Assembly: GCA_050273025.1 (NCBI GenBank) | Contig: CP158635.1 | Coordinates: 12,958,001-13,022,000, forward strand | Direction of reading: 5' to 3' | Source: Cenococcum geophilum | Lineage: Eukaryota | Length of the DNA: 64,000 bases | Shown: piece by piece, positions 3,564 through 38,033 of the stretch | Layout of the letters: each line of letters starts with the position of its first letter | How positions within the stretch are numbered: position 1 is the first letter of the stretch | Position numbers and translations under genes: made by a program | Notes under the pieces: generated by a model | Seen by the model: only the letters and a program-made list of their open reading frames with translations | Told to the model about the DNA's origin: nothing | Databases searched by the model: none

Positions 3564-3610
3564 TTACCCCCCCTTCTATAGAGGCGGAGCTCCGGCGACG
3601 CTATAGTTAC

Positions 3611-7682: not shown

Positions 7683-7796
7683 TAAAGTTCCTAGACATTT
7701 TAACAATATTCTAGTTATATAATCGCACTTTACCGTAATCTAACGGCAATTTGCCCTTACGTAGTAATGTATAACGGTTTAACTCTATAAGGGCTC

Positions 7797-14480: not shown

Positions 14481-15040
14481 ATATTAATAGAGTTAAGGAT
14501 ATTAATAAGAACGCTAAGGGGGTCTTTTTTTACTATTCTCTAAGGAAACATTCTTTATTCTATATAGTAGAAGTTAATAAATAAGTAAGAAGATAATTTT
14601 TACTTGCTATCTTACCAGTACGTTCTCTTAATTATATTTATACCCGTCTTTATCTTATTTAAATATAATTAACTAAGTAATAAGATTAAGCGTATAAGCT
14701 GCGCACTAAATACGCTAATTATTCTTTTAAAATTAAAGATGGTAGCTAAATAATCTAAGTAGGTATTATTATTTCTAGTATTAATAATAATAAAATAGCT
14801 AAGACTCTCTTTGGTAACTTTAAAATAAGCTAGAACGTCGCCAATTACTACGGCGTATTTAATTTTAATATAGCGGCTAAGTTGCTCTAATAGAGTAATT
14901 AAGTAGTTAATAACTCTACCCTTATAATTAAGACAATAAATATAAACGCTAGTAAGTAAGTGCTTACTGCTGCCTATAGTCTAGCTATTAAATAAGAAGT
15001 AAAGCTTTAAGTAGGCGTTTATAAGTATAAGGGCGCGAAG
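14481..15040 (-). pseudogene. hAT-family DNA transposase fragment, interrupted by Gypsy A
   Basis: Minus translation KLYFLFNS*T (de-RIP KLHFSFDGWT), SYFIIINTRNNNT (GYF.IDNA.NND) and RI*CAAYTLNL (RIRCAAHTLNL): the hAT catalytic D, D and CxxH motifs in the right order. Confidence 0.8.
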
Positions 15041-15538
15041 AGGCTTTAGGGAAGATTTAAAGAAATAATATAAATTCTATCTAAATCTAAGGGTATATAG
15101 CTCTCGCTAAGAACAAGACGTTGCGTAAAGAAGAGAAAGGAATAACAAGAGAATTATATAATTAAATAGTCAGGGGCTTAGTAGTCAATGCGTGCGCATA
15201 TACGCATACGGTCTTCAACAGACTTTAATAAAATTTAATTAGTCTAGCAGAATTTAGTTAAAGCGTCGGAATTTATCTATTAAGTGTTTTACTAAGACAT
15301 TCCTACTATAACTAGGCTAGTCCTATTATAGTACCCCCCCTTTTAGCCAAAGGTCTAAATAATTCAATTTTAGTTAAGACTTATAACTTATCACGTATTA
15401 TATTTTCGCGTTAGGTAGTAGTATAGGGTTTTACCAATTCTATTATTAAATAGGCTAATTAGGATTTTCCATCCCCGGGATAAAAAATCGCTATTAATTT
15501 AGTTAAGGTAGTAAGTAAAACTAATATCTTTATAGTAG

Positions 15539-18500
15539 TGTAACGGAGCCTTGTAGTAGGAACTACGGTAGACTCGTTAATAGGCTAGGTATATAGGTGC
15601 TGTAGGAAGTTAACAACGTAATAACAACTAGTGGAGTGGTTGCCCAATAGATTAACTTTAATTGTATTCTAAGAATCACTATAAGGAAGGAACTATCTAG
15701 GTAGGGACTAAGGGTCCTTAAATATATAACTATACTTCTATGAAATCCTTCTTGTATATAAGGTACGTAAGGTACGTAAAGTATATAAAACGTTCCTTAT
15801 AGATCTTATAGAGCTTATAGAGCTTATTATATAACCTTAGTTACTATTCCTCGTTATATAGTTCTATCGGCTCTATCCTAGACTATGCTTGTATTAACCA
15901 ACTAGCTTCTTTTAACTCCTCTCCTAGTAGTTGTAATATTGTACTTAAAGCGTCTGTAACACTATCTCCCTCCTTTTTATCTTTATCCTTAAAGATACCT
16001 AGTATCTCTAGGTCATTTATTAGAGGTATAATGTCCATCTAATTAATTTGGTTAATATTATTACTTATTATACCTAAGGCTATTCCTTTTTCCTTAGCTA
16101 AGCGTCGGTCTCGTACTGTATCCGTTATATTATTACTAGGTAAGATTATGCCTTCCTATTCTTATTGAGCGAAAGAGGGGTTAGTTTATATTATAATTGT
16201 ATTACCTATTAACTAATAACCGTCCTCTTGTGCTGAGTGTATATAAGCAAATATGCGATCTTCTTGCGATATTCGTTCTGTTTCTAACGCTAAGTGTACG
16301 CGTCTTATTACTCTAAGTAGTCTTTAAGTACCCCTATTAATTGCTGCTAGGGTTTTAGGTTTAATCTACTACTATAAAGCTCAATAATAAATTGTTAGAG
16401 GCGCTAGCTAAGATTTATTAACTTTAATATACTAATAAGCTTTGTCTAACTTATATTTATAATAAGCTTTGTCTAACTTATATTTATAATAAGGAGCGTT
16501 ATATACTGGAGGCTCGTTAAAACGCTTATACTTATCTTCTTTGTCTTAAGAAAGTTTGTAAGAAGGTTCGTTCTAAGGAGTGGAAACTTATAAAATAAGA
16601 TTTACAGGAACTTAGTAATAAAAGAACGGATTCTCTTTTAATAGAGAAGGAAATAACTCTAAGTAGCTTAGTAATTATTCTTCCTATATCCCCCTTAGGT
16701 GGTTCATTTTTTGGCGATCCTTCTTTATTAATACTACTTAACCTTTTTTCTTTTAATACTCCTGTACCTTTTCTATAGCGTTTTTTAAATTTTCTAGTAG
16801 CTCCTAGGTAGTCTCATTATAGCCTATCCACTTTACTTTATACTATATTTTATTATTAACATCCTTATAGCTAATAATCTTTAAAACTTGCTATTTATCC
16901 TCTTCCTGTCCTTTATATATGTTTGCTTTATAGACTAGTAGCTTAATATTCCCGTATGCTAGCTCTAGTATTACGATGTGCTATATAGAATAGATCTTTA
17001 TTTTAGCTAGTAGGTTTAACTTAAACGTAACTAATAAAATTCTTTTTTTAATTTTAAAAGGTCCTAGTCTAACGTAATCTAACTGCTTACTTAGTTATTA
17101 ACTCTTAAAATTTTTATATAGTAGTTATACTTTATCTCCCTTCTTAAGATCTGGTCCCTTAGATCTCCTAGCGTTATAATACTTTTTTATTCTTTACTAT
17201 ACCACCTTTACTATTTCTGTAAGGTTTATATAAAGATTTATTAGTATCTCTATTTTTGCTTAGCTGTGCTACTTATTTTCTTTACTTATTGTGGTAATAG
17301 CGATATTCTTAGCTTATATCTATAATTCGCCTTAAATAGTAATATTCCTATTCCTTCTTAAGGTGTTATATTATATGCGAACTGTATAATTAGTAATAAT
17401 AATACCTAATTATTCTATATATAATTAATATAGTGTTTTAGATACTGTTCTAGTGTTTAATTTAATCTTTCTATTTAACCTTCTGTCTGCGGATAATATA
17501 TAGTAGAAGTTACTGCTTAAACTCCTTATTCCGCTAAGAATACCTTTTAAAATACTGCTATAAATCTTAGATCTCTATCTAATATAATTTTACTTAGTGC
17601 TCTATATCTTATAAATACTTCTTTAATATAAATTTTAGCGATATCTTCCGCTAAGATTTCTTTTGTATATGTTATAAAGTATCCCTACTTTATTAGCTTA
17701 TTTACTATTACTAAGATTGTGTTATAATCTTATTTAGTAATAGGATCTCTTAATTTTAGCAACTTTATAATAAAGTCCTATAATATAACCTCCTATAGTC
17801 TTCCTAGTATTTTAATAAGTTATAGCTTTCTATATAGCTTATATCTCATTAGTTTATTCCTTTAGTAATCTAGATATTTACTTATAACTTATCTTACTAG
17901 TCCCTAGATTTTATTAATAATGTACTTCTTTTAGAGTCTTAACACTAAGCCTATAGCTCTATTATATCCTTAAGTTAGTCCCTTATAAAATGACTTAATA
18001 AACTCTTTTATAATACTTTTAGGCATATACGTTACTTTTTAGTTTTTATACTACTCTAAGTCCTAATCCTCTATCTATATATCTTAGATCTTTTATAACT
18101 AGTTACTTTTTAGTAATTTATAGGTCTAACTAATTTCTCTTATTACTATAATTCTCGGATAATTGTATTTAATTAATCCATTTATATCCTTTTATAGTAA
18201 AGCCCCTAATAGCTTCTCCTTATTTTATAGTTTAGCCTTTCTACTTAGAGTATCTACTTGTGTATTATCTGTACCCTTAGTATACTAAATCTTAAAATGG
18301 TATTCTATAAGCATTTCTGCCTATTTAACTTATCTTTAGTTAAGTTTTTTGTTATTAGAAACCCCGTTACGTTTTTATAATCCGTTTTAACTATAAATAG
18401 CTTTTCTATACCTTATAAGAATGCTCTCTATTTTTAAAGTGTTATAACTATACCTAATAACTCCTTGTTATAGATGTTATAGTTTAGTTCTAATAGTGTT

Positions 18501-18945
18501 ATCTTCTAACTATAATATACTACTAGGTGCTATCCGTCCTTATATTTCTATAGGAAGTATACCCCTAGTATAAAGTTTAATGTATTTATTTTAATCACTG
18601 TCTTTAATTTTAGTTAGTAGATTTTAAGGATTAGGTCTTAAGTAAATAACTCCTTAACCTCCTTAAATAGTTTCCTTTGTTCTTCTCCCTATACTTAAGG
18701 TTCTTCTTTCTTTATTAACCTTATAAATAGCTTAATATTATTTAACTATTAAGTTATAAACCTTCTATAGTAATTATAAAACCCTAGAAATAACCTTAAC
18801 TATATAACGTTCTCTAGTTCTTACTAATTTACTATAGCCTTAATCTTTTTTAGATCTATACTAAGTCGGTTTAGTTTAATAATAAATTTAATAAAATCTG
18901 TCTTCTTAGTAAAGAATTTATATTTCTTAATTACTAGTTAAATAC
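15539..18945 (-). mobile_element. Gypsy/chromovirus D, 3' half only (3' LTR, chromodomain, integrase, RNase H, RT C-terminus), truncated at ~18945
   Basis: LTR 15539-15961 (TGTAAC...GTAACA) with adjacent PPT. Minus frame shows a chromodomain (YKVKWIGY), integrase, RNase H (YNIYNKELL) and the RT tail (IKKYKFFTKKTDF = IEKCEF), which stops abruptly. Confidence 0.88.
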
Positions 18946-19357
18946 ATGTAGTGGTGGGATTGCATCTGTTTTTGGGGGTTATTAGCCGCCGCTTTTAGCA
19001 GCGTTCTTACCTCGCTTAGACCCTATCACATCGCCGCTTTAAAGAAGCTCTGTTCGCTTAAGCACTTCCTATCCCTGCCCCGTCTATTATTCTAAAGGGG
19101 TTAGAAATGGGACACGAGCTTTAGTAAAGCTCGTCAGCGCTTATGTTAATTTAACAATAGCACAGCCTATATAAAAAGGCTAGCGTCTACTTAAAGAAAT
19201 GGCCTGCTTACCCTCTCCCTGCACTCTCTCCCTTTACTACCCTTATTCCACTTCCTCTTTTTTTCCCTTTACTATCCTTATTCTACTTCCTCTCTGGCGA
19301 TTTAATCCTTATCTATAATATTTACCTTACCTATTTAGCAAACTCGCCGTTGCTAGA

Positions 19358-21924
19358 ATAGTAGTACACCTATTAAAGTAGCTGCTCTGGCTTATAGGAC
19401 GGAGAGGAGAAGAGCACTCTACGCCGCCGCCGTTTATTAAAACTTAAATCCACAACTCTAAAGTCTAGACTCGGATATAGATACCAACCTAGATATATAT
19501 ATTCGTTTAGAAGATAGTATAGATTTAAATTCTAAAGAACTAGATATAGAATTAGATGCGGAGTTTAATACAGAGTTAGATGCGGGATTAGATGTGGAAT
19601 TAGACTCTAAAGCTAAGGAAATACTAAAAGACATTACTAAATTAGAAGAGGAGGGACCCGCGAAACTAAACTATACTTCTTATACTAAGAAACTATAAAA
19701 GAGGGAAGGCAAAATCTAGGAGATATAAATTATAAAAATTTCTACTAATTTGTTATTACACCCTCTAATTACTATAAACTAGGTACTGCTTAAAGATTAA
19801 AAAGAAAACCTAAAAAACCGTAGACGACTAGCTGCGTAAATGCGCCCTAATAGTATTTAAAGCATATCTCCGCTAGCGGAAGAGACATTTTTAAATTAAG
19901 AAGGAGAGCTTAATGCGGAGCTATTAGAAACAAATTAGCATATGCTATATAGACCTTATACGCCATAAGATGGACGGTGATGTCTTTAATAATGTTTACA
20001 ATATAAGTTCCTACCCCTCCTTTAAGGTAGGCTAATAGTTATAGAAGTGGATCCCAAGCCTTAAGCTTAATAAGTCTGTAAAGGAAAAGTATGCTATATT
20101 CGTCTAAGACCTTTATACTACCCTTTACGCTCTCTAGATTAACGATACTAAGCCACTCTATAGCTTTATTTAAGTCTAAATTTTGCTTCTTCTTTTACTT
20201 AGTGTAGCTATAGCTACAAGACTAGGCGCTCTAGTGGAAAGCGCTAGTACTAAAGGCAGCAATAAAGCCGTCTGGTTTAAGAATATTAACGTTATAGTTA
20301 TTTATAGTAAGAAACACTCTAATAAGAGTATGGTTATAGTAAATATAAACCTAGAATATATTAATAATATAGAAAAGAATAATAAACCGTAAGCTTTATA
20401 CTATATCTAAATAATATATCCTACTAACTATAAATCTATAAAAAGAAATTTACCTTCCGTCTAGAAGACCTTCCTATATTCTATATTATTTCGCATATCT
20501 TAGCTATTAGCGTTAGTTAAGACGCATTTTAAGATAACTTTACGAGTGTTTAAGATATCTTTAACCTTAAGGTATTGGCGTACCGCGAAGTGCTACGCGT
20601 TGGGTGGAAGGACAAAGTACTAAATTAGCTATTCTTCTGCGACGTTAGCTATATAACTAGGGGTGGCAATATTATAAAAGAAAAGGCCTTTCTATACGCT
20701 AAATACTATAACATATTTGTACGCCTAGGGCTTATTACTAGGTTTAAGGAGGTACTAGAGCTATACCAGCTATAACGGGCTTTAGGTAAAAACATTAACG
20801 GTAGAACCGCTTAATAATTACCTCTGGACCTAGTTATATATTAATTATATAGATAGACACTATTACTTTAGAAGAGCGGAACCAGACCATAGGCTATCTC
20901 GGTAGTAAGTATAAGAAGTATTATATATTAACGCATATTACACGTAATTACTAGAGCATCTATTTTAGAAGTCCTTTATAGGATCTCCTTATTAAATCTA
21001 TTATAAGAGTGGGGCTGTTATAAGATCGGCGAGCGCCTATAGAGCTTAATAATAACCAGCTAGAAGAAGTCCGTAATAACCCTAAGCTTAGAGCGCTTTA
21101 TAATAAACGAGAAGAATATAAAAACCTTATCTATAATAAAGGCCTCTACCCTATTACTAAGGCTAAAGGTACTAAATTATACTAGTAATATAAAGAGACT
21201 AAGTGGAATATTGGTATAATGTATTAAAGGTTATAGAGGGAACGATTAATAACCGCTATTCGCGAATTCTATAACTTAATTAACCTAATTAAGATAGCCA
21301 GTTAGCTTAGTAGGAAGGGCCTAACTAAGGTAGGAATTTAAACTTCTAAAGCGGGCTACTATTGCTAAAATACTCTTTACACCTTTTAAAAATAAAAAAG
21401 CCCGGGTTAAGTTTATTAAAAACCTAGCTTAACTATATTACTAAGAAGAAACAGCTTAATGTAAACCTTTAAAATAAAAGAAAATAGACTTTATTATCTT
21501 TAAAAACGAGAAAATATCTTATATACAAAAGCGAAAGGATATTAGTTTTAAGAGTACCTTAAATTACTAAACTCCTAATTATATGTCTCTAAAGGAAGAG
21601 TCGCCGGATAATAAATATTGTGGGACTATTTAATAAGAGCTTAGCACTTTAGACGCCGCTAAAGCTAAAACTATTTAGTTATATCCTATAAAGCTTCCCT
21701 ACCTAGTATACCTTATTTATATAGGCAATAATAGGTTCTTATATAAAAAACAGATGCGCTATATACTATAAAAAGACGTCCTAAAGAAGCATATAGAAAC
21801 CCACTTTTAACTCCCTAAATATTAGAGAGAGTTTTAATATCGCTACCCTAAATATTCCATTAATCTAAATAGTATAATGTATTTTAAGAGATATATATCT
21901 AATACGTATGGAGTATCTTACTAA
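19358..21924 (+). pseudogene. DUF3435 tyrosine recombinase (Starship captain), multi-exon, RIP-degenerate
   Basis: LLLLLSVAIATRLGALVESASTKGSNKAV (de-RIP TRPGALVES, catalytic R), LELYQL*RALGKNIN (YQLRRASG), ERNQTIGYLGSKYKKYY (MGH...Y), and a C-terminal Cys/His region KDVLKKHIETHF...C.HP.C...HFKRH...HGV. Confidence 0.9.
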
Positions 21925-24900
21925 TACACGCAGACTCCCCTTCTACTAGTATATATCGTAAGAGGAACGCATTATTATTACTATCTCTATATTTAAGATA
22001 ATAAGTAAAAAAAGAGAGGGAAGGGAAGAAGGGAGGAAGGTAGTAATAGGTAGCTCCTTCTCTCTTTAGTAATAGATTATATTATATTAAGAAGTTTTCC
22101 TTTAAAGAGAATTCTTAATTAAAAGAAGTAGTAAAAGAAGTAAGAGAGATAGGGGGTAACTTAGCCGCGAGAGTTTATAATAAGGTCCTCTTTATAGCGA
22201 AAGGTATTAGTATTACCACCTATTTACCGTCTATTCGGCACTTACTTATCGCCTATAATAAGTAGACAGCTTATATATAACGTTTATTACTTATCTAGTT
22301 CTTTATAGGAATTTTAATTGCTAATAAGCCAGTAAACTTAAATATATATTAGAAAGAAGAGCGGATTTATAACATAACTAAAACTAGCCTTATAATTTAA
22401 CGTAAATATATACCGCCCAAATAAGCAGATTGCCTCTTTTACTTTTATCTACTCCATATTCTAATAGCCTTAAATACCTTATAGTTCTTGTTTTAGGTTC
22501 TAGAATATCTTCCCCTTAAACTTTAAAGGACCTATAGATCTTGCTTTACGCCTTTAGCTTATACCACCTTAGCCTTACAGCCCTATACATACTAGGTTAA
22601 GGGATAGTCGCTTATAAATTAGCTTCCAGTTTTTACACTTTAGAAATTCTGTATATAGTTACCTATCCTATATATCTATTATACTAGAGACATATTAGAC
22701 GTATTAATTCGTTAATAGTAGTAATACTCTTACACTATTATAGGTATAATAAATATATAAGAGGGTTTAAGTAGTAGAGAATAGTATAATAAGACACAAT
22801 CTATATATATATATAAAAGAAAAGGGATATAAATATAAATATTTTTTTTAAAAAAAACAAAAGAAAGCAATATTCTAGGCAACCTAGACGGCTTAATAGA
22901 TATAAAAAGATCAACCTAGGGTTCGCTAGAAGGCCATATATACAGTTTATAAAAATCCTATTTAGCTCCAAGTAATAGAAACTAGTCGACACTAATAGAG
23001 GAGTAAGATATTAATTAGAGGCTTAAACTAAGTAGGATAAAGAAAATCTAAAACTTAATAAAACTAGCTAGCAACTATAATAATAGTATAGATTGCTATA
23101 ATAAGAACGCCTTTAAGCCAGTCTATTTTAGTGTTAGTTATAGTAGATTACCTATATAGAAAGGAAAACTTACTAGATTTACTATCCTAAATAAGATAAT
23201 TTACTAAAAGTACGGCAATAAATAAAATAGTAATTAGAAAGGTATTAAAATAAAGTGTTATATAATCCTAGCCTATAATCTAACTAAGTATAATAATAAA
23301 TAGGAGAACTAGAAGAGCGATTTGTATACTAAATCTAATAGTAATATTAATTGCTAGATTTATTTTATCCTTATAAGCTACTATAACCGCTATTACGTAC
23401 TTAGTAGCGTTCCTAATAATTAGAAGTAGGATAAGACCGATAAAAGTAGTAGAGATAGTGCCGCTTGCCATAATATTACTAATGCTATTAACTATAAACT
23501 TGGAATAGAAGGTAACCAATATAGTAGAGATTCTGAGGGTTAATATTACACCCTAGATTATTAATTAGGGCTCCTTAATCTTATTATTTTCCTTTTCTGC
23601 GTTTAAATCCTATATAGGCTGTTCTTAGTTTACTCTACCTCTAGATATAGCCGGTGCTCTAGCGCCGATCTATATAATACTATAGAGAGGTATACCCTAC
23701 TTATAGGAGGACCTACGCTTAGGAGCCCTTTGGCTTAGAGTATTATATATTTTAATATATAACTTTAATTAAAATATAAGGTAGCAAATATATATAATTA
23801 GGAGGATAATAGCTATTCTATAGGAAAGCTCTAGATTAAGTATAGAGCTATTAGGGCTCGTAGCTATATAGGTTAGTACCTATTATAGGTCTAAAGCTAT
23901 TATTAAACTTACTTAATAGCGTAGAGTAGAAGGCGGTTAGAATAATTAAACTACTAATATATAGAGCTAGAAGACCGGTCGTAGTACCTACTACTGTTAT
24001 ATTAAAATGTTATTCTACCTAGTTAATGCCTCTAAAGAAGAAGTATATACTAAGGATAAGGAGTAAGTTCAAAAGTATACTACTAATTAAGGAAGTTTTA
24101 ACAATAGTAATCTAGCCCTTAGTTAGGGCTAAAATAGAGATAATTAATTTAATAGTGTTTCTGCGCTAAATATTAAATAATATTAGGACAAATAAGAAGC
24201 GGAGAAATGTACCTAAAAGTTACGTTTAAAAGACTACCTAATATATTACTAGCGCGGAGCGTAATCTCTTTAGTAGTGTAATTAAGCATTACAATAAGCA
24301 GAATAACGGCAATAAAGTTAACGATAAATATAGTAATACTATTAACGTAAAGATAATTAACTACGAAGCTAACAGGAGCGGTAAGAAGAAGTATATTTAT
24401 CTATAAGCTAAATAAGACGGCATAAACCTAATCCTTAGTAGGTATATTACGCTTTAAAGCTACTTTTAGCCTTTCCTTTTTAATTATTAGCTTAAGATAT
24501 AAGGATCTTTGTAGGACTATACTAGCCTCTTTATTAGGTTATTTATCGTTAGGCCTTATCTAGGCTGCTTAATAGGCTTTTAAGAGTGTTGCTAAATTTA
24601 AATATACTATTATAAGCATAGTTTTTAATTTTTCCTATAAAGAGCATAACGGAGAAGGGCAATTTTATAGTTTAGAGGGTACCCATATATAGTAAAGACT
24701 AAGAAGTCTAATAGTACTTAGGCTAACACTAACACCTTAAATCCACAATAGTGTGTTTAGCTTTTTTTTATAGTTAATTTTACGAGTAAGGATCTAAAGC
24801 AAATTCCAAAATAGTTACTATAGAGGAAAGAAGGATTAATGTTAATAACTAGATAGAACGGCTAGTAAAAAAAAAGAAGGTAGAGTGTTCTAATAGATAA

Positions 24901-24959
24901 ATAATAAGTAAAAAGTAAACTAACTACTTATAGAAATAAGGACGTAGTAAAACATATAA

Positions 24960-26400
24960 ATAAGAGTATAAGTCTATATGCCTAAGTACCGGCTGCTTAA
25001 TATCTTAAATATAAGTCCTCCCTTAACGCAAGGCAGATTAATAGGAGTTATTATACCGCCTGTATAAGGCGGAGCGCTTATAAAGGGCTTAGCTAAAATG
25101 CTAATTAAACCACCCTATAACGCACTAATAGCTCCTTTACTATAGATAGGGAGTAAATATATAAGATTAACTGGCTAAGATAAGTCTACTACTTAAGCAG
25201 TACCCTACTCCGTAAAGGGTAGGCGTTAGGAGTAAATTATATAATGCTATTCCTGCTAGGTAAGGCGTCATTAGGGGGTTATTATTGGCTTCCAGTTCTA
25301 GTTTATAATTTTATATAAACGCCTTTAAACCCTACACTATTGGGGCTATCTAAAAGCTAAATTGCCTATTTACCTTATCTTAACCTTAGGCCTAGCTTAT
25401 CAGCTATTAAGGCGATAGGAAGTTATATTAAGGCGTATAATAGGGCTTAAGTAAAGCCACGCAACTAGATAGGCATTACTGTGCAAAGTAATGCTTAACC
25501 AGCTACCTCTATATCACCGTCTTAGAATAATTAGAAGAAAGGGGTTAATACTAGCCCTTATTGTTTAATATAACCCTCCTATAAAGGCATAGCAAAGGTA
25601 GGTATAAACAGAAAGGATTATACTCCTATTATAGCCATATTATAGCGCATTTATAATACTGTACTAATATCCCTAAGTTAGTAAATTAGCTTAACTTTTA
25701 AGGCATAGTTAAAGCGGAGTCCACCATTAGCTCTCCTATTAGCTAGGTAGTAGAAAGGAGCAGGATATAAAAGGCCTTTATATCCTTTAACTAGACCTAT
25801 ATTAAGTATAGTATCCTTTAAGGAAATCCCTTCTTACTTTCTTATAAAGACACTCAAACTATTAGCTACCTTATTTCTTTAACAATAAGCCACTCAGACG
25901 CCATAATAGAGGATACCACATTATATTAGGCCAAGGTGCGCTCTAAACATTAAATCCTTTGCGGGATACCGCTAACGGAGCTAGGATATACTATATACTT
26001 CTAATCCTAAGGGCTCCGATAAGGCCGTTAATATAGTAGGGCAGGTATATAATAGTTGCTTCCCTATAGTTTTATCTAGTTAGCATTAAAATATAAGAGT
26101 AATTTAGAGAATAATAAGGCTAATATAAAAGGAACTATAAGGAAATACTTACTCCGCACTAATAAAATAAAGAAGTCGTTTTAATATAGTCCGTTTAGTA
26201 ACTCCTTCTAATAAAGCTTACCAACCCCTAGCTTACTCTATTAGGGGCAATAAAGAGACTAAGTAGCTTAGTTAATTAACTTACCTATAGGCTTAGCCAA
26301 CTTAATAGGAGAGTTAGCAGCCTTAAAAAATGCGACCGCTATATTATAAGTTATTTAGGGAAGGTTAACAATTGGATTAACAACCTAAGAAGTAACTGGA
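24960..26400 (-). pseudogene. Unidentified RIP-degenerate cargo gene that includes repeat copy 1
   Basis: Coding-like composition; minus frames readable when TAA/TAG are reverted; no family recognised. Confidence 0.35.
24986..25319. repeat. ~334-bp direct repeat, copy 1 (copy 2 at 30609-30942)
   Basis: Aligns at a constant offset of 5623 bp; differences are mostly transitions. Confidence 0.92.
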
Positions 26401-26951
26401 AAGAGATAAGAGATACTATTAAGCGGCTTTAAAATAAAATCCATACTCTTAAGAGAGGTAGTAATAAAACTTTAGATTATAGAGATAAATGGATTATAAA
26501 GGTAAGAAACAAGGTCACGGCATCTAAGAGAAAAAGGGCACGCTTAGCCTAAGGATGGAGAAGTTCGCAGAATTAAGGAGGAAATTTATTAGCTTAAATA
26601 GTACGCTCTTTAGTCTTATATTGTTTGCTTATTAAAGGAAATTTATATATTAGATTTAAGCTAGACTAGCCCCGCCCTTTATAGCAAGTGTTTACCACAT
26701 TTATATACTTAATTAGCAATAAATTAGCAAATCTAACTAAGCTTGGTGTCTAAAGTAAGCAGAACTATATTCTTCTATTATATATTTAAGTCTAGTTGCT
26801 CTACTAGCGTCTTCTTTACTAGTAGAGGATAGCATTATTCTTAAAATAGAAGTTAGTTTATGGAATAATAGAAAAAAAGGGGGCCTATAAGGGTTTCTAG
26901 GTCTAAAGGCTATAAAAACTATTTAATTTACTAATACGGTAAATACCCTGG

Positions 26952-29394
26952 CTATCTTAACCCGCGGAGTTTTACTATTACCCGTTATATCTCCCGCACA
27001 AATTTATTATAATATCCTCTTGGCTACCTACCTAGACCCTCCTTAGGTACCCGTTTTCTCTTTTAATTTAGTAAAATAACACCTAGCACAGCCCGCGGTT
27101 TTAGAACCTCGGCCCGTTTAAAGTTAATTATTATTACTTTGCTAACCTCTATATTCTAAAGCATATTATAAGGTATTACATCTTAGTGCAAAACTCCTAA
27201 TTAATGGACGGCCTAAATTAAGCGCTTAACCTATTCTATTAGGTATAGCCTATTATTACCGTTAATATATTAAGAGATTAGTTTCCCCCTAAAACTAAAG
27301 AATATTATATAAACAATCTCCGTAATACCGTTATAGAAATATAAACGGTTAAGATTGATATTTCCTAGATATACCGGTATATATATACTCTAGATTGGAC
27401 AGAGGCGCTTGTAGACAGTGGCCTTCTAATTTAGGTGGCTAATAAAGTTAATAATAGTGCATTTCGCGGCTAGGGTATATCTATATAACGTTAACCTAAC
27501 CTTAAATAAAGCCCCGCGTGTTCTATATACGCTTACTAGCTTATAATTAGTATCTAAATCTTTTAAAAGTTGCCGGCGTATAAGATTAAGGAAGGTAGGT
27601 TAGTTAATCTAATAACGGCTTCCGCCGTAATCTTATATATTTAAACACGTCTTGTTAAGTAAACCCCCCTCTACTAAGCTAAGAAGACATTTTTAAGTGT
27701 AATACCACCCACCTTTACCTCTATGGCGGGAATCGCGATTAGATAATAATCTGCTAATAGGGTCTAGGGCTTAGGGCAGAGGCTAGGGTAAGGACCGCTA
27801 AGATAGACAGCTTAGAGTATTAGGATTAAACTTATTATTACTAGGCTCGCTTTAATCCTATAATAGGTAATACTAGGGGGAACTAGTTAACGTTGCTCTA
27901 GGTTAAAGCTGGATAGGTAATATATAAAAAAATTATTTTGCCTAGGTGCCCAGTACTCTAATAAAAGCGTATTATATATAGGAATTGTATCTAGTAGATT
28001 ATTATAGATTACCTCCTAGCTTTTTAGTTAAGCGGCCATATTAGTCCGCCAATTTTAACTTTAAGGCGGCGTCTTTAGCGCCTAAAGGGTAAATACTAGC
28101 ATCTGTCTGACGGCGGTTAAATGTAATTAATTTCCCCTATCTAAATCCAGTGCCCATCCAGTTGTCTCCCTAACGTTACCCTTAGGGATAGATAGGAAGT
28201 AGTAAACTATTTTAGGATTATAGGGCACTTATAGAAAGATAAATACTTCGCTAGTGTAAATGCACCTATACTTTAGTCCAGCCTAGACCATATAAGAAAA
28301 GGCCTAAGTAATAATGGCAGCGACTAGGCGACGGAAGTAGTCCTATAGGCTGTCAATCTTATAGCAATAGACTACTTCCTTAAGTTTTATATTATTAAGA
28401 CCCTTATAGATATAGCCAAGAGTTAGTTTATAGGGAGCCTTATACTTAATAATAAAGGTAGTAATATAATGCTCTGTGTTTTAAGTCTTGCTAGAAGTGT
28501 TATATACGCAGAACTAATCTATATAAGGACGCAATAACCTTACTAATTCTGCTATTGCTGTAGCCGTAGGCTCGGCTAGGCTAGCTAAGCTTATCCGCTT
28601 AGCCTAGGCTTAAAGACGGGGTAACCGCCGTCGTTAGTTCCTAGATATACTTATTTATTATATCCTCCTTTATCCGCTATTCCGGGCTAAGAGTATTAGT
28701 ATAATTTTTCTAACCCTTTTAGGCGGAACTTCCGCCGAAGCGTTGGATTATTATAAAGTTGTTTAATAATTAATAATATATAGTCCTTAACGGTATAGCG
28801 CTAAAAGTAATTTAAGTCTAGCTTAGAACTTATTATCCTCTAGTAGATAGCCTCCCTAGACTCTTTTAATATGTATAGTGAAGTAAAGTGCTATTCTAGT
28901 ATAAAATCTAATCCTATAAGGTCGTTCTAGATGGCTTTCTGCTATACTAGAAAATCTTCTTATACTTAAATCCTTTTAGGGCGAATCTTATTATTCGCAT
29001 TAGTAGGGTCGCCCTATATTAATAACGTCGCATTAGTTTAAATAGTAAGGCCTAAGTAAAGGTAGGTATAACAGGCGTTAAGAAACTTAGGTAGTATTGT
29101 CTTACAGATTTTCCCCTTAGCTTCTTCCCGGGCTTGCTCTTCTTCTTACTATTTATATTATTCTTCTTCCTATACGCGCTCTGCTTCTTCCTATATACGC
29201 TCCACTTCTTCCTATATACGCTCTACTTCTTCCTATACGCGCTCTACTTCTTCCTATACGCGCTCCGCTTCTTCTTATTTATACTACTCTTTTTCTCATC
29301 TACGCTGCTCTTCTTATCGTCCGTATTGCTCTTCTTGCCGTTTACGTTACTCTTTAAGGAAAAGCTGTTTATAATCGGGTGACTGTTAGACCAT
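26952..29394 (-). pseudogene. Spok-like protein (N-terminal coiled coil, PD-(D/E)XK nuclease, Cys cluster, kinase-like domain), RIP-degenerate
   Basis: ATG at 29394. EEAERV.EEE heptad-like repeats, KTILPKFLNACY.YL, GDPTNANNKIRP, D*FCVY, FIIKYKAPYKL (IEYKAPHKL), *AFSYMV, ATVYKRLCPI*.IYIPVYLGNINL, GVLH.D..P.NML, IINFKRA (IDFERA). Domain order matches the Spok family. Confidence 0.85.
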
Positions 29395-30059
29395 ATTATA
29401 GTGGCGATAATAATAATAACGGGAGAGTATATAGGGGAGAGTTTTGTTTATAGCGGATAGGCAATTTAGGCGGAGCGGATTAATAGAAATATTTAAACGG
29501 TTTTACTAATAATCCGGAACCCGTAATAAATAGCTAAGTTAAAAACGGATGCAAATTTTAAGCTCTACGCTAGCGTCCTCTTTAGCCTCGCTATATTTAA
29601 GCCTTATATATTATATACAAATCTATAAAGATCCTAAAACTAAAAATAAAAGAAATATATAAGACCAGCTCTAGAAATATTAAAGAAATTCCCATATAAT
29701 AACTCCTATAAACCTTGTAACGACTTAAAGCCCCCTTATATATACTTAAAGAAGTCCCTATATAAACAGCCCTATAAGCGTAGCTATAAGTCTAAGCCCC
29801 CTTACGTAACCTAACTACCCCTCCCCACCATACTGGAATAGACGAATAACCGCTATATATAGTAAGTAGAGAAATAATTTAAATAAAAAGAAAACACTAT
29901 AAAATAACATATTTATATCCTTAAGGTATAAATCCATAAGAACTGTAGTCTTAAACACAACTAATAGTTGCTAAGGCGGCATATGTTCCAGGTCCATAAG
30001 AAATACAAAAAATCCTAGGTCGCTAGCATAGATTTATATTCTATTATTGCTTTTAAGGT

Positions 30060-30980
30060 AGTAAATAAACTTATCTAAGGGAAGGCATAGATTGTTATAA
30101 ATGCTTTATAGCTTGCTATAAGTCAAGCGGGCAGAGACTTTAGTGGGAATAGTAAAATATTATTTTATTTCGCGATAGGCTAAATAAAGAGAGGCTAAAG
30201 TTTTAACCCTTTTACCAGCTTTTATTAGAACTCTTCTTTGCATTTATATCTTATACTTATAGATTTAGGACTATAAAGCCAAGGCCACCGTATAGCCTCG
30301 TCGCTTAATATCTCTTTATTACTGTCTACCTATATTTCTTAACCTTTAGTACTAAAACGATTTTCTCCGCTATATAATATCTCTACGTCCCATTCTTAAT
30401 CCTCATTACTAGAGTTACTCTCCCAACCAGTTAACGCCTCTACGTTGCCGTTACTATTTCTAAAGTCGATTTCTCTATCTATAAACGCCTACTTACTAGC
30501 TAACGATTTAGGGACGCTATATTTATAGGTACTTAGGGTTACGGGATACCACTTAAAGAGAAATTGTAGTTAATATTGTTGGGATATAGAATAAGCCTGT
30601 GGGCCTCCGTACTAGTTACTTAGCGCCTTAAATATAAGTCCTCCCTTAGCGCAAGGCAGATTAGTAGGAGTTATTATACCGCCTATATAAGGCGGGGTAT
30701 TTATAAAGGGCTTAGCTAGGATACTAACTAAGCCTCCTAGCAGCGCACTAACAGCTCCTTTACCATAGATAGGGAGTCAACATACAAGATTAACTGGCTG
30801 GGGTAAGTCTACTACTTAAGCAGTGTCTTGCTCCGTAAAGGACGGGCGTTAGAAGTAAATTATATAATATTACTCCTACTAAGGGAGGCGTTATTAGGGG
30901 ATTATTATTGCCTTCTAGTTCTAGTTCACAACTTTATATAAATTTCACTAAACTCTGCTAGGGCATGCGGCGTCCATTAG
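30060..30980 (-). pseudogene. Unidentified cargo gene relic that includes repeat copy 2
   Basis: Readable minus frame downstream of the repeat (DREIDFRNSNGNVEALTGWESNSSNED*EWDVEIL). Confidence 0.35.
30609..30942. repeat. ~334-bp direct repeat, copy 2
   Basis: Matches 24986-25319. Confidence 0.92.
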
Positions 30981-31329
30981 GGATCGTTAGTTATTTATAT
31001 TTAGTAACAGCTTAGCTAATAGCTACTTCCTAATAATACCTCACTTATAGATCACCCTAGGCGCCTATAGTCTTGGGTGTAGATAATATATAAGCTAAGA
31101 GTAATCACAGCTACTAAATATTATACCACAGATACTACATAAAGTGGGAGAGGGCGGCTAGTATGCTCTGTCTTTCCCTTCTACCTTCTATCCTAACTCC
31201 GCCCTAGGAGAGAAAATAAAATATAAATATTATACTCCTAGCTCTTATATGCCATTAATTTAACTTACCTTTAAATTTAACCTCTTAACCATATATCCCT
31301 TACCGTCCTTATAAGAATACTAAACATTA

Positions 31330-32312
31330 TATATATTACCTTAACTAAGTTTAGGTACGTTGCTAATATAACCTATAAGTCCTTAATTAGGGAAAAAATC
31401 ACTATATATTATCGTCCCGGAGATAATATACCTAATTACCAACCTACTAGGGACCTTAAATTCTAGAATTGCATCAATAACAAGGACATGGCATCTACTA
31501 GTAGGGAGAAGAAATAATCGCAGCTTTTTAACCCTATGTAAAAATAGATGCCTTATACGCCCACTTAAATACCTAATAAAGTCAATTTTTACGAAAATAA
31601 CAATAATATAAAGGGCGGTACATAAGAGGATACGGTTTAGGAAGGTGTATAAAAAATATACCTTAATTATTTTAGGGGATTAGAAGGCCACGGTAAAGAT
31701 ATGATAGGCTTACCTAAGCTAATAAAGGACCATAGTAAGGCCAAGATAGACTCGCCTTAACTGGCGGATACAGCCACGGTTTTTAAACGTGTTTTGCCGG
31801 TAACTCTAGGTATATTTATAAGACCCCTATATTTATTTAGCAATACTAATAAGTAAGTAAAGAATAGCTTAGCTAATCTTATAACCTTTCTTAGAGTTAC
31901 ATCTCCCCTATTTAAAGTATTAACGATATCTAATGCCACGATTTCGCGCGGATAACTAAAGTATCTTATCTTATAGTTGCCTTCTTATTATATAATAGAG
32001 GACTAAAGACGTCTCTAAAGCCCCAGTTATAAAGCAATTATATCTACATTCGGCCCTGTCGTAGTAATATACTAGTACTCTACCTAGGTTTTAGTTGTGG
32101 ACATACCGCAAGAGAGACTTATAATGTACTATACTAAAAACCCTTATTTCCTCTGTCGTTATACTAAAATATATAAACCGCTTAAAGATGTTATAATAGA
32201 GATAGTTAAGAGGGCGTTAAAGGATTCATTAAAAGAGCTATTAGGGAGAAGGATACGTAAGAGAAAGGCGGTTTATACTAAAGATAGAGGTTCTAAGAAG
32301 CCTAAGAAATAA
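31330..32312 (+). pseudogene. Unidentified cargo gene with a basic, NLS-like C-terminus
   Basis: ORF remnant 32097-32312 ends RRIRKRKAVYTKDRGSKKPKK*; the upstream frame is interrupted by RIP-type stops. Confidence 0.4.
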
Positions 32313-33578
32313 TAAATTTCTTATAAGGAAAGACTTTCGCAATCACGTTAATTTCTTTTAGCATTTATTAAGGATTAAGGCGTTAATTAGGATTTCCTTA
32401 GCTTGGTATTTTGTTTCTATACAGTTGCTTCTATATTAAGAATCTCTCGTTATTATCCGTACGTAAAGAAATAAATTCTTATATATTGGATTAAAGTTGG
32501 AGACTCGCTTATAGCAAGCTAAATAAGTCCTCCACCTTTATATGCTTGGTAGTGATGAGTTAGCCGCCCTATAACTTGCTTAGTCCTTAAGGTCGTCATT
32601 TTCCGATCTAAATACCTTAGAATTAACCTTTATTGACCCATCCTCTTTAACCTAGTCAAAATGTGCTAGAGTCTTCTTAACTAGAACAGGATAGAACCTT
32701 TCCTTTAAAATAGTTAATATATTCTATATAGTAATAGAGAGAAAAGGGCCTACTAGGTCTTATAGGTTTAGAGGCTATAAAGATTAATCTATAGATGTAT
32801 AAATATAAAATCGACCATTGCGCCATATAAGGATATAGCAATCTGCGTCAAAGTGTCGCTTTAATCTATTAGCCTTTTCTAAGAAGGTCCCCTTTTGCTT
32901 TTAAAAATTCTCATTTACGGCTCGCTTTAACCTTAATAGTAATCTTTGCTTTAGACACATAACTATAATAAATAATTAACGGCTTGGTAGCTCTCTGGTG
33001 TTTTTATAGGATAACTAGCGTATAGGTTAACTAAATATTATATTAATAAGATAGGAATGTTAAGAGTAAATATAGGATATATCCCTTAATATTAGCCTAA
33101 GTTGCGGCTTTAAAAACTAAATCTTATTCTAAGGACTGGGTCCAATTCTAAAGACTATATTCTAATTCTAATGACTATATCCCGAGTCTGTTTTTAGGAA
33201 CGGGCCAGTTAACTATTAGGAACCTCTACTAAGCTAAATACACTAAATACGGCTAAAAAGGTAAAGTGGTTAAGCAAGCGGCTTAATAGTCTTAGAAGAG
33301 TAAGCATAGGGCTATTTTTACCCTAGCTTAAATCGCGATCTTAAAACTAAACCTAACCCTAGAAGACAGCTAATTAACTATTATAAAAGGGCACAATCCT
33401 AAAAACTGGATCCGGTTTTAAGAAACTAGATCCTAGTTTTAGGAAATAGGTCGATTAACCGCTATATAAAGAAGTTAACTGTCTGTATTTAACATATTAG
33501 GTTTAGCCTATTTTAAGACCAGCCATATAATTGTCTGTTAGCGCTTATATAACTAACCCCAGGAAACCCACTCTTAGG

Positions 33579-33626
33579 AGCCCTACTATATTAAAGCCTT
33601 ACGCGTTACGGAATAAACTAAAACTA
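33579..33626. repeat. 48-bp direct repeat, left of the ankyrin gene
   Basis: AGCCCTACTATATTAAAGCCTTACGCGTTACGGAATAAACTAAAACTA; second copy at 35593-35640 differs by four transitions. Confidence 0.9.
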
Positions 33627-34313
33627 GTTATCGTAGCTTAGTATTTAACTAAGCCCTACGAAGCCTTAGTCTAAGCCGCGTTAGGTTAGCTTAACTTTTC
33701 TACACCCAATCTTTAATCTTTAGTATTTACTCCCACCTTACTTCCTTCCTTATACTTTTCTCCCTAGTTATTTCCTTATTATAAGACGCGCTTAACGTGT
33801 TCTTAGCCTCCCTATACTTATCTACCATTATACCGTCCTTATATACTAGCCTCTTTAATCTTTCCTCCTTGCCTACCTATCCGCCTGCCATGCGGCCCTC
33901 CTAATATAGCTCTTAGCGCGTTTGCTTATAATAGTAAATCTCTCTAGATTAGAGATAATTAAAACGAAGCCTATTAGGGAAGGACTAAATAACTTTTATA
34001 ATTTATTTAACTTAACTTATTAGGATCTAGGCACCCTAGCTCTCTAGCGTAGTATTATATACACTTAGTTAGATTAACAGTGCACGCCCTCCTACTAAAG
34101 AAATCCTTTTTATTTTCCCGTTTTTTAGTTTTATTTTCGGTTTCCTAAATCCCTAATCCCAACTTTAAAATATCTTTTTATTTAACGTTTAGTAAAAATA
34201 AGTAATAATAGTCTAACAGAATAAATACCTCTTACGCTACCTTCCCCCCATAGACATATTTTAAATCCTTTTACAGTAAAGGGTAATCTACCTCACATTC
34301 GCCAGTTTAAGTT

Positions 34314-35425
34314 ATGGGACTTATATCCTTAAAATATACTTTAAATACTACCATATAGCCAGCTACTTAGATAGTAAGCCTTCTACTACCGGATTTCTAT
34401 TACTTATTTAGATCCTACTAGCATAGAGCTAATATATATGTCTCTCTTCGTCTAGAAATACCACTGCTTTTGTTAATAAACAAATTACCACAGCGCTTTA
34501 AAAGTTTAGCGTTATTACAGGCTGTGGAATATAGATAAGAAGCAGAGTCTTATATTCTACTAGAAGTAGGAGCTAACATCTAAGCAATAGACGATTTTGG
34601 TTGGACGCCGCTGTTACTAGCTATAAGTAATGGTCACGAGGCGGTAGTAAAGATACTTCTTGCACGGGATAACATTAATCCAAACTCCAAGGATAAATTT
34701 AGGGCTACGCCACTGTTATTAGCCGCAGAATATAGAAGTAAGATAGTAGTAGAGCTATTACTTATACGGGATAACGTTAACTTGGTTCCTAAGAGCGCTT
34801 TTAGAGATATACCGCTATTATAGGCCGCAATAAACGGGCATAAGGGGGTAGTAAAGCTACTGCTCGCGTAGGATAGTGTTAGCCTAAACCATAAGGGCTT
34901 CTATAATTAAACACCGCTATTAGTAGCTACAGAACGCGGGTATAAGGTAATAGTAAAGCTACTGCTTATAAAGGATAGTATTAGCCTAAACTCTACCAAT
35001 ATTAAAGGTCGGACTTCGCTCTTATAGGCTATAGAGAGTGGAAAAAAGGGGATAGTAAAGCTACTGCTTACGTAGAAAAGCGTTAACTCTAATTTTAAGG
35101 ATAGTAATAGTCGGACACCACTCTTATAGGCTGCTTAATAGGCACGTAAAACTATAGTAAAACTATTACTTAAGGACGGCGTTGACGCGAAATCTAAGGA
35201 TAAATATAGTGAAACGCCGTTGTAGTGGGCAGCGGAGGGCTAGCATAAGATAAGAGAAATATATTTATCAAATACGCGGCTAGTAGGGTTAATAGATAAG
35301 ATATATAAGCTAGTGGTTTAGCTGCTGCTTAAAAAGGATAACGATGTAGACTTTAACACTATATATACTTAACTTTCCTATAAATTAGAAAACTAGTCAC
35401 CAAGAAAGAGCAAAGGCTATAGTTA
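34314..35425 (+). pseudogene. Ankyrin-repeat protein (about 7-8 repeats), RIP-degenerate
   Basis: GWTPLLLAISNGHEAVVKILL, ATPLLLAAEY, PLL*AAINGHKGVVKLLL, RTPLL*AA, ETPL*WAAEG, spaced ~100 bp apart. Confidence 0.92.
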
Positions 35426-35592
35426 ACTTTCTTATACTAAGTAAACTGTTATCGCTGACTTTAATATTGTTCTCTTTCCTACCTATCTTCATGCTAGCTG
35501 CCTCCCAATTTTGCATCGCTATTAAGTCACGGGGGCGTAGCCTTATCTAAGAGATATCCAGCGATCTCTTAGCAGCCCTAGTAGATCGCGTA

Positions 35593-35640
35593 AGCCCTAC
35601 TATATTAGAGCCTTACGCGTTATAGAACAAACTAAAACTA
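35593..35640. repeat. 48-bp direct repeat, right of the ankyrin gene
   Basis: Matches 33579-33626. Confidence 0.9.
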
Positions 35641-36049
35641 ATAGGTATAATTAGTTATAGACTAGAAAACGCTGCATATCTACACTAATTGTTAAAAAGT
35701 CGCCGTCCATTTCCATTATTCACCACCCCTTTAAAAATTTATTATTTAGTGTCCTTTTTTAAGTAAATTTGCCGCATTTAAGATCCTAATTTATATAGTC
35801 TTAGCGCTTAAAGCAGCACCGAAGGATTAAGCCGTAGCGCCCACATTATTCCCACCTGCGCCCTATACCTTACTGTTTTCGCTAAAACCGGAACAATAGG
35901 GCTTTTTTTTTAAAAAAATTCAGGAAGTTACGCGATGCTATTGCCGCCAATAATTAAACTTTTAAATTTATTGTTTACTGTTTCTTTAAACGTTCCAATA
36001 GCCCTTTTAATAGGCCTTTAATAGGTCTATTTTACCTTCAATTAATAAA

Positions 36050-38033
36050 GGAATTATTATTAGCTCTCTCTATTATCGCCATCTCCTTTAGTTTCTATTT
36101 TTTTTACCTATAGCAGACTGTGCTAACTTTGTAGTTCAACAGCTACCTCTAAACCTTTACTAACTATCCTCTAAAGTGCTTGCTTATTAGATTAAGCCTA
36201 AAGCCTTAACGTCTGCTATTAGAAGACATTTTTTACTTTCTTTAGGCGTAAGATAAATATTCCTATAAGCATCCTTAATCTTGGATTCAATTAGCATTTA
36301 CCCTTTTACTTTTAATTTACTATAGATTACAGGCGACCCACCATTTCCCAAAAGGACTCTACTATTAGGATTTTAGCTTATTTATAACCACGTATTAATA
36401 TAATATACGTTTCCTATTACTATTAAATTATAGTATAAAACCTAAATTAAAAAAGCGATTGGATGAGTAGGTTTACCTAAAATATACCTATATAACTGCT
36501 CCTCACTATAATTAGAGTCACGATAGTGCTTATAGATAATCCATCCAAACAAGATATATGTTCAGTTACCCTTTTTCTAGCCCTTACAATTACTAATAGC
36601 GTTATTAAGGGAATCTAAAGTATATTAAATCTATCTCTACTCTAATCTAATACCTTAAATGGATTCTTCCAATTATCCTTTAACGCGGGTACAGATAAGA
36701 TTCCTATACTGCGACCAACATGCCCTATAGGGAGTATAGCGGCCAACTTTATAATAAAACCAGTAGTGCTATAAGATATAATTAAAGAGCTTATAAAACG
36801 TGGGTGCTATAAGCGCATATTAGCGGCCTTACTAAAGAATAACTATAAAGCCTATAGGAAAGAAGCAAATGCGTGGAAAAGTAAGGCAATATATTATTTG
36901 TGCAGCCCTATACTAACATTTTAAAACCAATAGAAGCTATTAGACAAGCTATTACTAAGCTAGTTGTATTCGTAAGAGGACAAGAAGAGCAAATTTTAAG
37001 CCTTTTATAGTTAAACTTAATTCCTACAGAGGTTACTAGTGCTTAAACTTTTAAAGCTAAGCTTAGGGATATCAAATTGCCTTAAAAACTTAAATATTTA
37101 CTAAAATATAAGCCCTTAAGATATAAAGTTATTTATAGCTTCTATTATAATCAGCATTGTACCCTTAGTAAAATTATTTAACTATTAGTGGAAATAGCAA
37201 ATGGCGCATAATATACCGTTTATTTTCCGGAGGCTAAGCCTAATATTATAGGTTGCTGTCCATAGTACAAAAAGCGCCTACTAAGGTAAGACTTTAGCTT
37301 GGTATAGGAAGGCGTTTACTTATCTTTTAATAAGATTCTAATAAAGTTATATCTACTCTGTTACCGCTAAGAGAGCAAAGCTTTAGCTACTAAGGAAATT
37401 CTAACAGCGTAACTTAAAGACTACGTGCCAAAATACCTTTAGGCTAGCTGCTCTACTTTATTTAAGTATACTAGCATTAATGTCGCCAAATAGGTCGCAT
37501 CCTATATTACCAGCTATTTACTATCTACGGCCCTAGAGTGTTGTTTATGGAATAGGTACCTCCGCCCTATAGAAAACTATATTAAACTTAGCTTACACCT
37601 CTTTTAGGACTATAGTATTCTATATAAGCTAACTTTACTAATAAATGTATATTTCTGTTATAAATGTTCTCTATAGATAGAAATAGACTTAAATTAGGCT
37701 AATTATTGTTCTAGCTACCTTTAAATCCCTCCTATATTCTTCGGCCTTGTATATACTTACGGAATTGTTACTATTACTAGGCGCTGCCTATTTTACTTTA
37801 GCTAATTAGAATATTAATAATTTCCAAAGCCGCGTTACTTTAACGTATATATTAACTAGTATATAAATAAGTTACCTAAGGGGGTAGTAAACTGTTTAGT
37901 GTGTAAGTATACCTCCTAGAACCCTTATAAGTTATAAAATTACTTAGATAAAATTTATAGAGTTTATCCTATAGGTATAGGACAAAGCCTAAAACGTAAA
38001 AGAGAGAGAAGTAACGGAGGAGGAGATATATGA
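36050..38033 (+). pseudogene. Unidentified cargo gene with possible C-terminal C2H2-like fingers and NLS
   Basis: 3' end reads NCLVCKYTS*NPYKL*NYLDKIYRVY (de-RIP C..C...H....H), then KRKRER and a TGA stop. Confidence 0.4.

Follow-up and report, generated by a model that had tools for sequence, protein, structure and literature searches.

Among the single-gene meiotic drivers of fungi, Spok genes are understood best, and their tie to Starship elements and accessory chromosomes is actively studied. The Spok genes of Podospora were reportedly the subject of work by Grognet in 2014. They act as single-gene toxin-antidote spore killers, and in Podospora SPOK3 killing depends on the nuclease domain and resistance on the kinase domain, with K240 and D667 as key residues (PMC6660238). 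Spok homologues have been described on Starships, among them Enterprise (PMC8092012), and as frequent cargo of "numerous Starships" (PMC9156397); 33 of 408 FuSpoks of Fusarium are Starship-borne, and pseudogenized Spok copies are present in many genomes (PMC12693581). Here we analyse a locus at 26952-29394 on the minus strand of a 64,000-nucleotide stretch of Cenococcum geophilum DNA (GCA_050273025.1, contig CP158635.1, positions 12,958,001 to 13,022,000 of the forward strand), which is called the window below and to which all coordinates refer. A sequence-only reading had taken this locus for a full-length Spok-like homologue broken by repeat-induced point mutation (RIP) and carried as Starship cargo. 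We conclude, at a probability of roughly 0.85, that a Spok-family gene is preserved here as a dead copy.

The Spok-family relic and its relatives

Relatives of the locus were collected with phmmer from 1.84 billion representatives, using as query a 600-residue frame translation of 28600-26801, which is in frame with the gene only across the nuclease part. At E<=1e-3 the search returned 603 proteins, of which 254 reached E<=1e-10 and 36 reached E<=1e-30; P0003 scored best (E 2.3e-82), and many of the matches are 720-830 residues long and aligned at their residues ~230-450. Full-length matches such as P0017 (E 1.2e-39), P0025, P0028 and P0054 bear the Pfam family PF27653, which is found in 120 of the 120 relatives listed for P0017 and likewise in all 120 listed for P0221. 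The protein Atlas gives PF27653 as SPOK2_N, lists it together with Kdo, and has clusters with SPOK2_N of 52, 422 and 2593 members. The closest named proteins come from Alternaria and Lentithecium.

For phylogeny reconstruction we used FastTree (LG+gamma, 774 columns, midpoint root) on the window's protein and 158 full-length homologues, namely all proteins of 680-850 residues among those collected plus three open reading frames (ORFs) from metagenome loci, excluding shorter and longer sequences. The window is nested among the 158 homologues; it falls together with P0233 and P0230 (support 0.91) and next with the Glonium stellatum protein P0225 (0.999). Its branch measures 0.44 against a median of 0.20, about twice as long, and RIP would give such lengthening. 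The proposal of a full-length Spok-like homologue is thereby borne out, since the window sits inside a tree of full-length homologues, albeit one made without Podospora Spoks, and not outside the family.

Several points weigh against this assignment. Membership follows from the PF27653-bearing relatives of the window and not from a PF27653 score of its own, Pfam having returned no family for the window's own translation in a library without the PF27653 model. No Podospora Spok occurred among the phmmer matches or among the 120 relatives listed each for P0017 and P0221, nor did Fs_82228. The tree gives the position of the window among the homologues collected, and not its position relative to the tested killers (Vogan clades I and II).

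Searches of the window by tblastn with P0003, P0007, P0010, P0011 and P0017 recovered a single copy, running from 29394 to ~26960 in three reading frames. The relic is full length and uninterrupted. It begins with a Met codon at 29394 that corresponds to Met1 of the closest relative, P0003 (MVxQSPDYK in the window vs MTEQSPDYK), and ends with TAG at 26954-26952, four codons past the last residue aligned to the homologue P0011 (R747 of 751). Its parts are as follows.

26952..29394, minus strand: whole relic, a Spok-family pseudogene; 811 codons plus terminal TAG (tblastn, stop counts)
28707..29394, minus strand: segment A; 229 codons, 23 stops; start Met, putative coiled coil, N-terminal domain 1; alignment with residues 1-188 of P0003
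29163..29278, minus strand: 21-bp tandem repeat; 5.5 copies, 89% matches; EEAERV-type heptads of the putative coiled coil
28659..28709, minus strand: segment B; 17 codons, 1 stop; second frame (KNYTNTLSPE... vs ENHANTLSPEW...), with a frame change on either side
27927..28654, minus strand: segment C; 242 codons, 15 stops; PD-(D/E)xK-type nuclease domain
26955..27923, minus strand: segment D; 323 codons, 22 stops; linker, Cys/His cluster and kinase

The four frame segments contain 61 internal stops (28 TAA, 32 TAG, 1 TGA) and are separated by three frame changes, near 28707, 28656 and 27925. Two of the three sites were inspected, and they lie in an A5 run (~28707) and a T7 run (~27925); the three frame changes may be late slippage or assembly errors. 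An intron behind the frame change between the nuclease and the Cys cluster was considered and rejected, as the new frame, read by eye, takes up the FLRMSPxRL block of the family directly after the T7 run at ~27925. With 61 stops in 811 codons and three frame changes the relic is unable to make a protein now, and it therefore has no killing or protecting activity today.

Two short entries in public collections bear on how such copies are annotated. P0035 (JGI, 92 aa) and the later part of P0141 (Logan, 187 aa) match the window in a frame that is, by eye, the wrong one for the Cys cluster. Both seem to be artefacts that ORF callers produced from copies with frameshifts or RIP damage. ORF callers miss genes of this kind, and these two public "proteins" are partly or wholly misframed.

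On the minus strand the parts follow one another as coiled coil, N-terminal domain, PD-(D/E)xK-type nuclease, Cys/His cluster and Kdo-like kinase, which is the Spok order. All motifs named by the sequence-only reading (coiled coil, nuclease motif, Cys-rich region, HxD/DFE kinase motifs) are present in this order. The window itself now has K for E in the nuclease motif and N for D in DFE, which the reading did not mention, any more than the three frame changes. The residues compared in the alignments are these.

Nuclease, minus strand: Asp kept at 28519; Glu to Lys at 28447; Lys kept at 28441; Gln of QxxxY replaced by a stop at 28306; Tyr kept at 28294
Cys/His cluster, 27701-27614, minus strand: Cys to Tyr at 27701; Cys at 27689; Cys at 27647; His to Tyr at 27629; His to Tyr at 27614
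Kinase, minus strand: Lys kept at 27464; Glu to Lys at 27425; catalytic-loop Asp at 27182 and Asn at 27167 kept; Asp of DFE to Asn at 27125; Glu of DFE to Lys at 27119

The window exceeds P0003 by 42 residues at the heptad repeat, and a 21-bp repeat in this place matches the "variable length repeat" of Spok genes. The N-terminal coiled coil is a candidate judged from this heptad repeat and from the modelled helix of a relative. In the nuclease the window reads FIIKYKAPYKL where the family has FIIEYKAPHKL, within an aligned block of the form ...DQFCVYN...FIIEYKAPHKL...ITQAFSYM. The window lacks the intact nuclease catalytic set with QxxxY, Glu and Gln both having been lost by RIP-type change; such losses are to be expected of a pseudogene and are no argument against ancestry. 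The nuclease Lys (28441) and the kinase catalytic-loop Asp (27182), which had been singled out for checking, are both kept. The spacing C-x3-C-x13-C-x5-H-x4-H is retained with two of three Cys, one Cys and two His having become Tyr by RIP-type changes throughout. The kinase motifs read VLHxD...N and IINFKRAE in the window vs VLHRD...N and IIDFERAE in the family. A profile of 42 homologues compared with the PDB matched kinases only, the matches (best E 2.1e-5) spanning their catalytic loop and DFG region, and among the relatives there are matches to Kdo, APH and Pkinase, although even intact relatives score only weakly on kinase models.

A metagenome scan yielded four loci with intact relatives that have not undergone RIP, one of which, L001, has a GC content of 0.47 and an ORF of 826 codons. 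The AlphaFold model of the intact L001 ORF (798 residues, predicted local distance difference test score, pLDDT, 74.8) has a helix at residues 8-75 and disordered linkers at 213-276 and 466-551, and its C-terminal domain is matched by Foldseek to protein kinases including Rio2 (E about 1.8e-6 to 6e-6). Modelled alone, the L001 nuclease domain reached a pLDDT of 77.1; Foldseek found nothing for it at E<=1e-3, and exhaustive structural alignment placed the type IIG enzyme BpuSI first (Z 6.0, root-mean-square deviation 3.7, 101 aligned) and a Vibrio vulnificus HsdR fragment second (Z 4.5), all Z values being below 8 and therefore weak evidence of fold. The same protein is named as best HHpred match by Vogan and colleagues (PMC6660238).

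The published descriptions of Spok1-4 from P. anserina, P. comata and P. pauciseta (PMC6660238) give the same succession of coiled coil with variable-length repeat, domain 1, disordered linker, PD-(D/E)xK nuclease with QxxxY, Cys/His cluster and kinase. Lengths are similar (811 codons for the relic, 720-826 residues or codons for full-length relatives), and no intron is needed in the coding region. The comparison is made through the published SPOK3 map and not through direct sequence alignment, and unlike Spok1-4 the window copy is dead. The nearest named relatives of the relic are proteins of Dothideomycetes and lichen fungi, and not of Sordariales. The Cys/His cluster also differs in its last interval, which is C-x3-C-x13-C-x5-H-x4-H in the clade of the window and C-x3-C-x13-C-x5-H-x7-H in SPOK3 as described (PMC6660238).

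RIP damage and copy number

The window is AT-rich, with GC between 0.25 and 0.40 in most 1-kb bins (range 0.25-0.53), and no long ORF is left around the relic. In all 2-kb bins across the window TpA/ApT lies at 1.49-1.90 and (CpA+TpG)/(ApC+GpT) at 0.27-0.85. Of 446 codons aligned to P0003, 280 are identical. Of the 166 that differ, 124 can be derived by C>T/G>A changes alone and 13 by the reverse, and the identity of 62.8% rises to 90.6% once RIP-type mismatches are discounted. The stops are aligned mostly to Gln, Arg and Trp of the relatives.

Codon-by-codon comparison with the intact L001 ORF (2292 nt) gave 440 C>T/G>A changes as against 138 reverse transitions, along with 227 transversions. 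The changed sites are concentrated at CpA (96 of 185) and TpG (85 of 140), with 62 and 66 of 147 at CpG, 31 of 151 at CpT and 30 of 137 at CpC. When the gene is divided into 400-nt bins, all six full bins have RIP-type changes at 30-41% of their C/G positions. This uniform density indicates that the gene itself was targeted; spill-over from flanking repeats as the sole cause of RIP was rejected on the same flat profile.

A further test uses the 116 alignment columns that are conserved in at least 90% of the 158 homologues. The window keeps 79 of these, alters 36 and loses one at a frame change, and the altered columns are RIP-type in 36 of 36 cases, with none of reverse type or other kind. That RIP struck an intact gene is thus the simplest reading of these alignments. 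The excess of C>T/G>A, the CpA/TpG context and the duplicated state of the DNA, which are the marks of RIP, are all found here, and with the even spread and the conserved columns they confirm that RIP broke the gene.

Podospora has its own dead copy, the pseudogene Spok-psi-1, which like the relic carries multiple stop codons. Spok-psi-1 is described as lacking its 5' end and containing a DNA transposon (PMC6660238), whereas the window copy has its full length without interruption, and RIP accounts for nearly all of its damage. A literature search combining Spok, repeat-induced point mutation and pseudogene gave no title on a RIP-killed Spok family among the matches listed. The relic documents residue by residue how an apparently intact member of a multi-copy family fell to RIP rather than to slow decay. 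It bears direct witness to one fate of drivers of this kind, which a RIP-proficient genome kills after their vehicle has made them repetitive. As both dead Spok copies and Starship-borne Spok homologues have been reported already, it adds an example and not a principle.

Contigs of four public runs from two related organisms were placed on 18000-37000 at a likeness of at least 80%. Between 14802 and 29586 contigs per run were placed, covering the whole stretch, and any one position within the gene has 4-18 different contigs over it in each run. Transitions predominate overwhelmingly among the differences (2445 vs 196 transversions in run X1), and the fragments P0022 (81% identical) and P0035 (77%) in public collections are in part RIP-like. 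The relic thus belongs to a repeat family that is multi-copy and RIP-diverged in both related organisms, and this accounts for the action of RIP on it. The extent of this multiplication has to be read with restraint on two counts: summed contig depth is not copy number, so that "tens of copies" is not established, and there is no intact copy among the contigs of the four runs, which cannot prove absence. Two contig joints (25050->30677 and 29610->35620) have short sides or lie inside repeats, and were set aside.

Surroundings and the Starship question

The surroundings of the relic were examined by six-frame Pfam scans of 18901-43100 (E<=1e-3 to 1e-2; RIP lowers sensitivity). Outside this stretch the scans covered parts of 1-18900 (2-3901 in one plus-strand frame, 8001-14000 and 16401-18900 on the minus strand) and ~63000-64000 on the plus strand. 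The following features were recovered.

935-3377, plus strand: Gypsy-type polymerase relic, RIP-degraded (Pfam; RVT_1, RNase H, integrase zinc domain and Tf2-type SH3 among this and the next two relics)
9235-10858, minus strand: Gypsy-type polymerase relic, RIP-degraded (Pfam)
18319-18685, minus strand: Gypsy-type polymerase relic, RIP-degraded, abutting the captain relic on the left (Pfam)
20455..21312, plus strand: tyrosine-recombinase relic of DUF3435 (Starship captain) type, RIP-dead, in two frames (Pfam PF11917)
23066..23546, minus strand: Na/Ca-exchanger (CAX-like) relic between captain and Spok relics (PF01699, E 5.1e-8, 33.5 bits, cut-off 24.9)
24965..25319, plus strand: 355-bp direct repeat, left copy, 82% identical to the right copy; a much higher-copy repeat
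30588..30942, plus strand: 355-bp direct repeat, right copy, 82% identical to the left copy; a much higher-copy repeat
34557..35256, plus strand: ankyrin-repeat relic, rather poor in stops (Ank_2, E 3.4e-37)

The claim that the relic is Starship cargo fared less well than its identification. What stands is a dead DUF3435 captain, matched to PF11917 over profile positions 96-210 (E 3.3e-10, 39.9 bits) and 214-363 (E 5.1e-10, 39.3 bits) against a cut-off of 25.8, which lies 5.6 kb from the Spok relic and reads towards it; this orientation and distance fit a cargo position, and a Spok-family gene a few kilobases from a captain of this kind is a feature shared with Starship-borne Spoks. Spok homologues are moreover recurrent on Starships (PMC9156397, PMC12693581). 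The rest is missing or speaks against it. Element borders, a target-site duplication or an empty site were not found around the pair. The six-frame scans of 18901-43100, some 24 kb, gave no DUF3723, ferric reductase (FRE), patatin (PLP), NACHT or HET at E<=1e-3, and no NLR core was detected there; Ank repeats and Na_Ca_ex were the only matches besides DUF3435. Transposon debris lies between the two relics and around the gene. Summed depth in run X1 is uneven: the Spok bins have 426-525, the captain bins 842-1025 and the flanks 1400-4900, a pattern that suggests several repeat families in mosaic. The metagenome loci of the relatives show no captain within 2-10 kb. We regard cargo as a tentative reading at somewhat under even odds.

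Close to an even chance may be given to the alternative that the Spok and captain relics are neighbours by accident. The Spok sequence would then have been multiplied by segmental duplication or as part of a ~6-kb unit between the 355-bp repeats, and transposons nesting later would have brought it beside an unrelated short multi-copy captain element. The 355-bp repeats bracket the gene on both sides at a distance of 5623 bp from each other, and depth drops in the four bins of 26876-29411, which span the coding region, being higher in both flanks and about twice as high over the captain. The Gypsy relic that abuts the captain on the left, and the loci of relatives that have no captain within 10 kb, point the same way. 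The position and orientation of the captain and the recurrence of Spok homologues on Starships tell against mere accident. As for a bounded ~6-kb unit, the 355-bp repeats may be a pair of solo long terminal repeats or unit ends; neither TG..CA ends nor a target-site duplication could be recognised. The repeat is itself high-copy, its bins reaching the highest depth among the flanks (~4900 in run X1), which makes two independent insertions as likely as a bounded unit.

In a Starship the captain stands at the 5' end and reads into the element; the captain relic may have stood at such an end, and a Gypsy relic and a very high-copy repeat come to an end at ~19270. Depth over 18000-19267 is 95,000-146,000 vs ~1,000 elsewhere (run X1), roughly 100-fold, and falls sharply at ~19270, which is the edge of this repeat, immediately upstream of the captain relic. 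Farther out, blastn aligns 786-3370 in inverted orientation to 57147-54536, where an additional Gypsy copy may therefore lie. The ankyrin relic may represent the end of a gene of NLR or kinase-ankyrin type; upstream of it Pfam gave no NACHT or HET and no recognisable N-terminal domain.

In the terms of PMC9156397 the locus resembles degraded Starships and the "Starship-like" or Derelict regions, in that a decayed captain stands beside dead passenger genes in repeat-rich DNA. It departs from the working definition given there, which asks for co-located DUF3723, FRE, PLP or NLR, as ankyrin repeats only were found here. Unlike in Starship-borne Spoks, captain and gene are both RIP-dead here, and they lie in a transposon nest.

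Three repeat regions elsewhere in the window are recorded as minor observations. The sole GC-richer part of the window comprises 4350-5161, 5379-5647 and 7415-7683 (GC 0.41-0.53 per 1-kb bin, with a weaker RIP index) and contains an internal tandem array, with units of ~90 nt, and a pair of 269-bp repeats that are 94% identical. A second tandem array, at 48029-48593, has a period of ~108 nt and units that are 73-81% identical. At ~63000-64000 on the plus strand, where Pfam gave nothing at E<=1e-4, repeated Cys/His spacing resembles C2H2 zinc fingers by eye.

Possible history of the gene and the question of drive

The history proposed here begins with a full-length family member that, as the alignments show, carried every family-conserved residue. 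Its sequence next turned multi-copy, as the many diverged copies seen today show, by a route for which a Starship-type element is a likely, though conjectural, vehicle, the link between captain and Spok relics being itself tentative. The RIP defence then struck the whole gene, as spectrum, context and even spread show. It made Gln, Trp and Arg codons into the 61 stops and altered catalytic or structural residues: Lys replaced the nuclease Glu, Asn the Asp of the kinase DFE, and Tyr one Cys and both His in the zinc-finger-like cluster. The three small frame changes presumably came on top of this, unless they are assembly errors.

Whether this gene ever drove is a separate matter, and drive in the ancestor is suggested by analogy, from family membership only. 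In an extended form of the same history, a Spok-type toxin-antidote gene would have spread on a compact high-copy Starship-like element in a burst of transposition, after which RIP destroyed drivers and captains alike. We consider this form unlikely. If true, nature would here offer an instance of a selfish killer that was disarmed by a genome defence because its vehicle had made it repetitive, and both burst and silencing could be dated from the numerous copies, each mutated differently, in the two related organisms.

It is also possible, if rather less than probable, that the ancestor was a Spok-family protein that never was a meiotic driver. It may have served as a vegetative "addiction" module stabilising accessory DNA, or as a nuclease-kinase of defence or allorecognition, and the relic would be silent on drive. 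Few homologues outside Podospora have been assayed, and this applies to most of what is a very large family (to judge from the SPOK2_N clusters of the Atlas), which counts against reading drive into the relic. Maintenance of accessory chromosomes in vegetative growth has been proposed (PMC12693581), and a spok gene is described in a 2026 preprint as limiting the loss of a dispensable chromosome (10.64898/2026.10.04.756499). On the other side, all residues needed for killing and resistance in SPOK3 (nuclease Lys and Glu, kinase Asp) were present in the ancestor, and the toxin-antidote logic is identical in either role.

That the gene was already decaying before RIP, with the frame changes as primary lesions, is very improbable: three frame changes are indeed present, but none of the 36 altered conserved positions needs a non-RIP change, the two inspected frame-change sites lie in homopolymers, where late slippage or assembly error is common, and read-technology artefacts can mimic broken Spok genes (PMC12693581).

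Among the metagenome loci, one contig (L003; genes at 8017-9063, 12905-14806 and 17606-19651) carries an intact Spok-family gene between an APH-type phosphotransferase gene and a HET-domain gene. Ankyrin and TPR genes lie near it as well, and neighbours of these types are known from fungal non-self-recognition regions.

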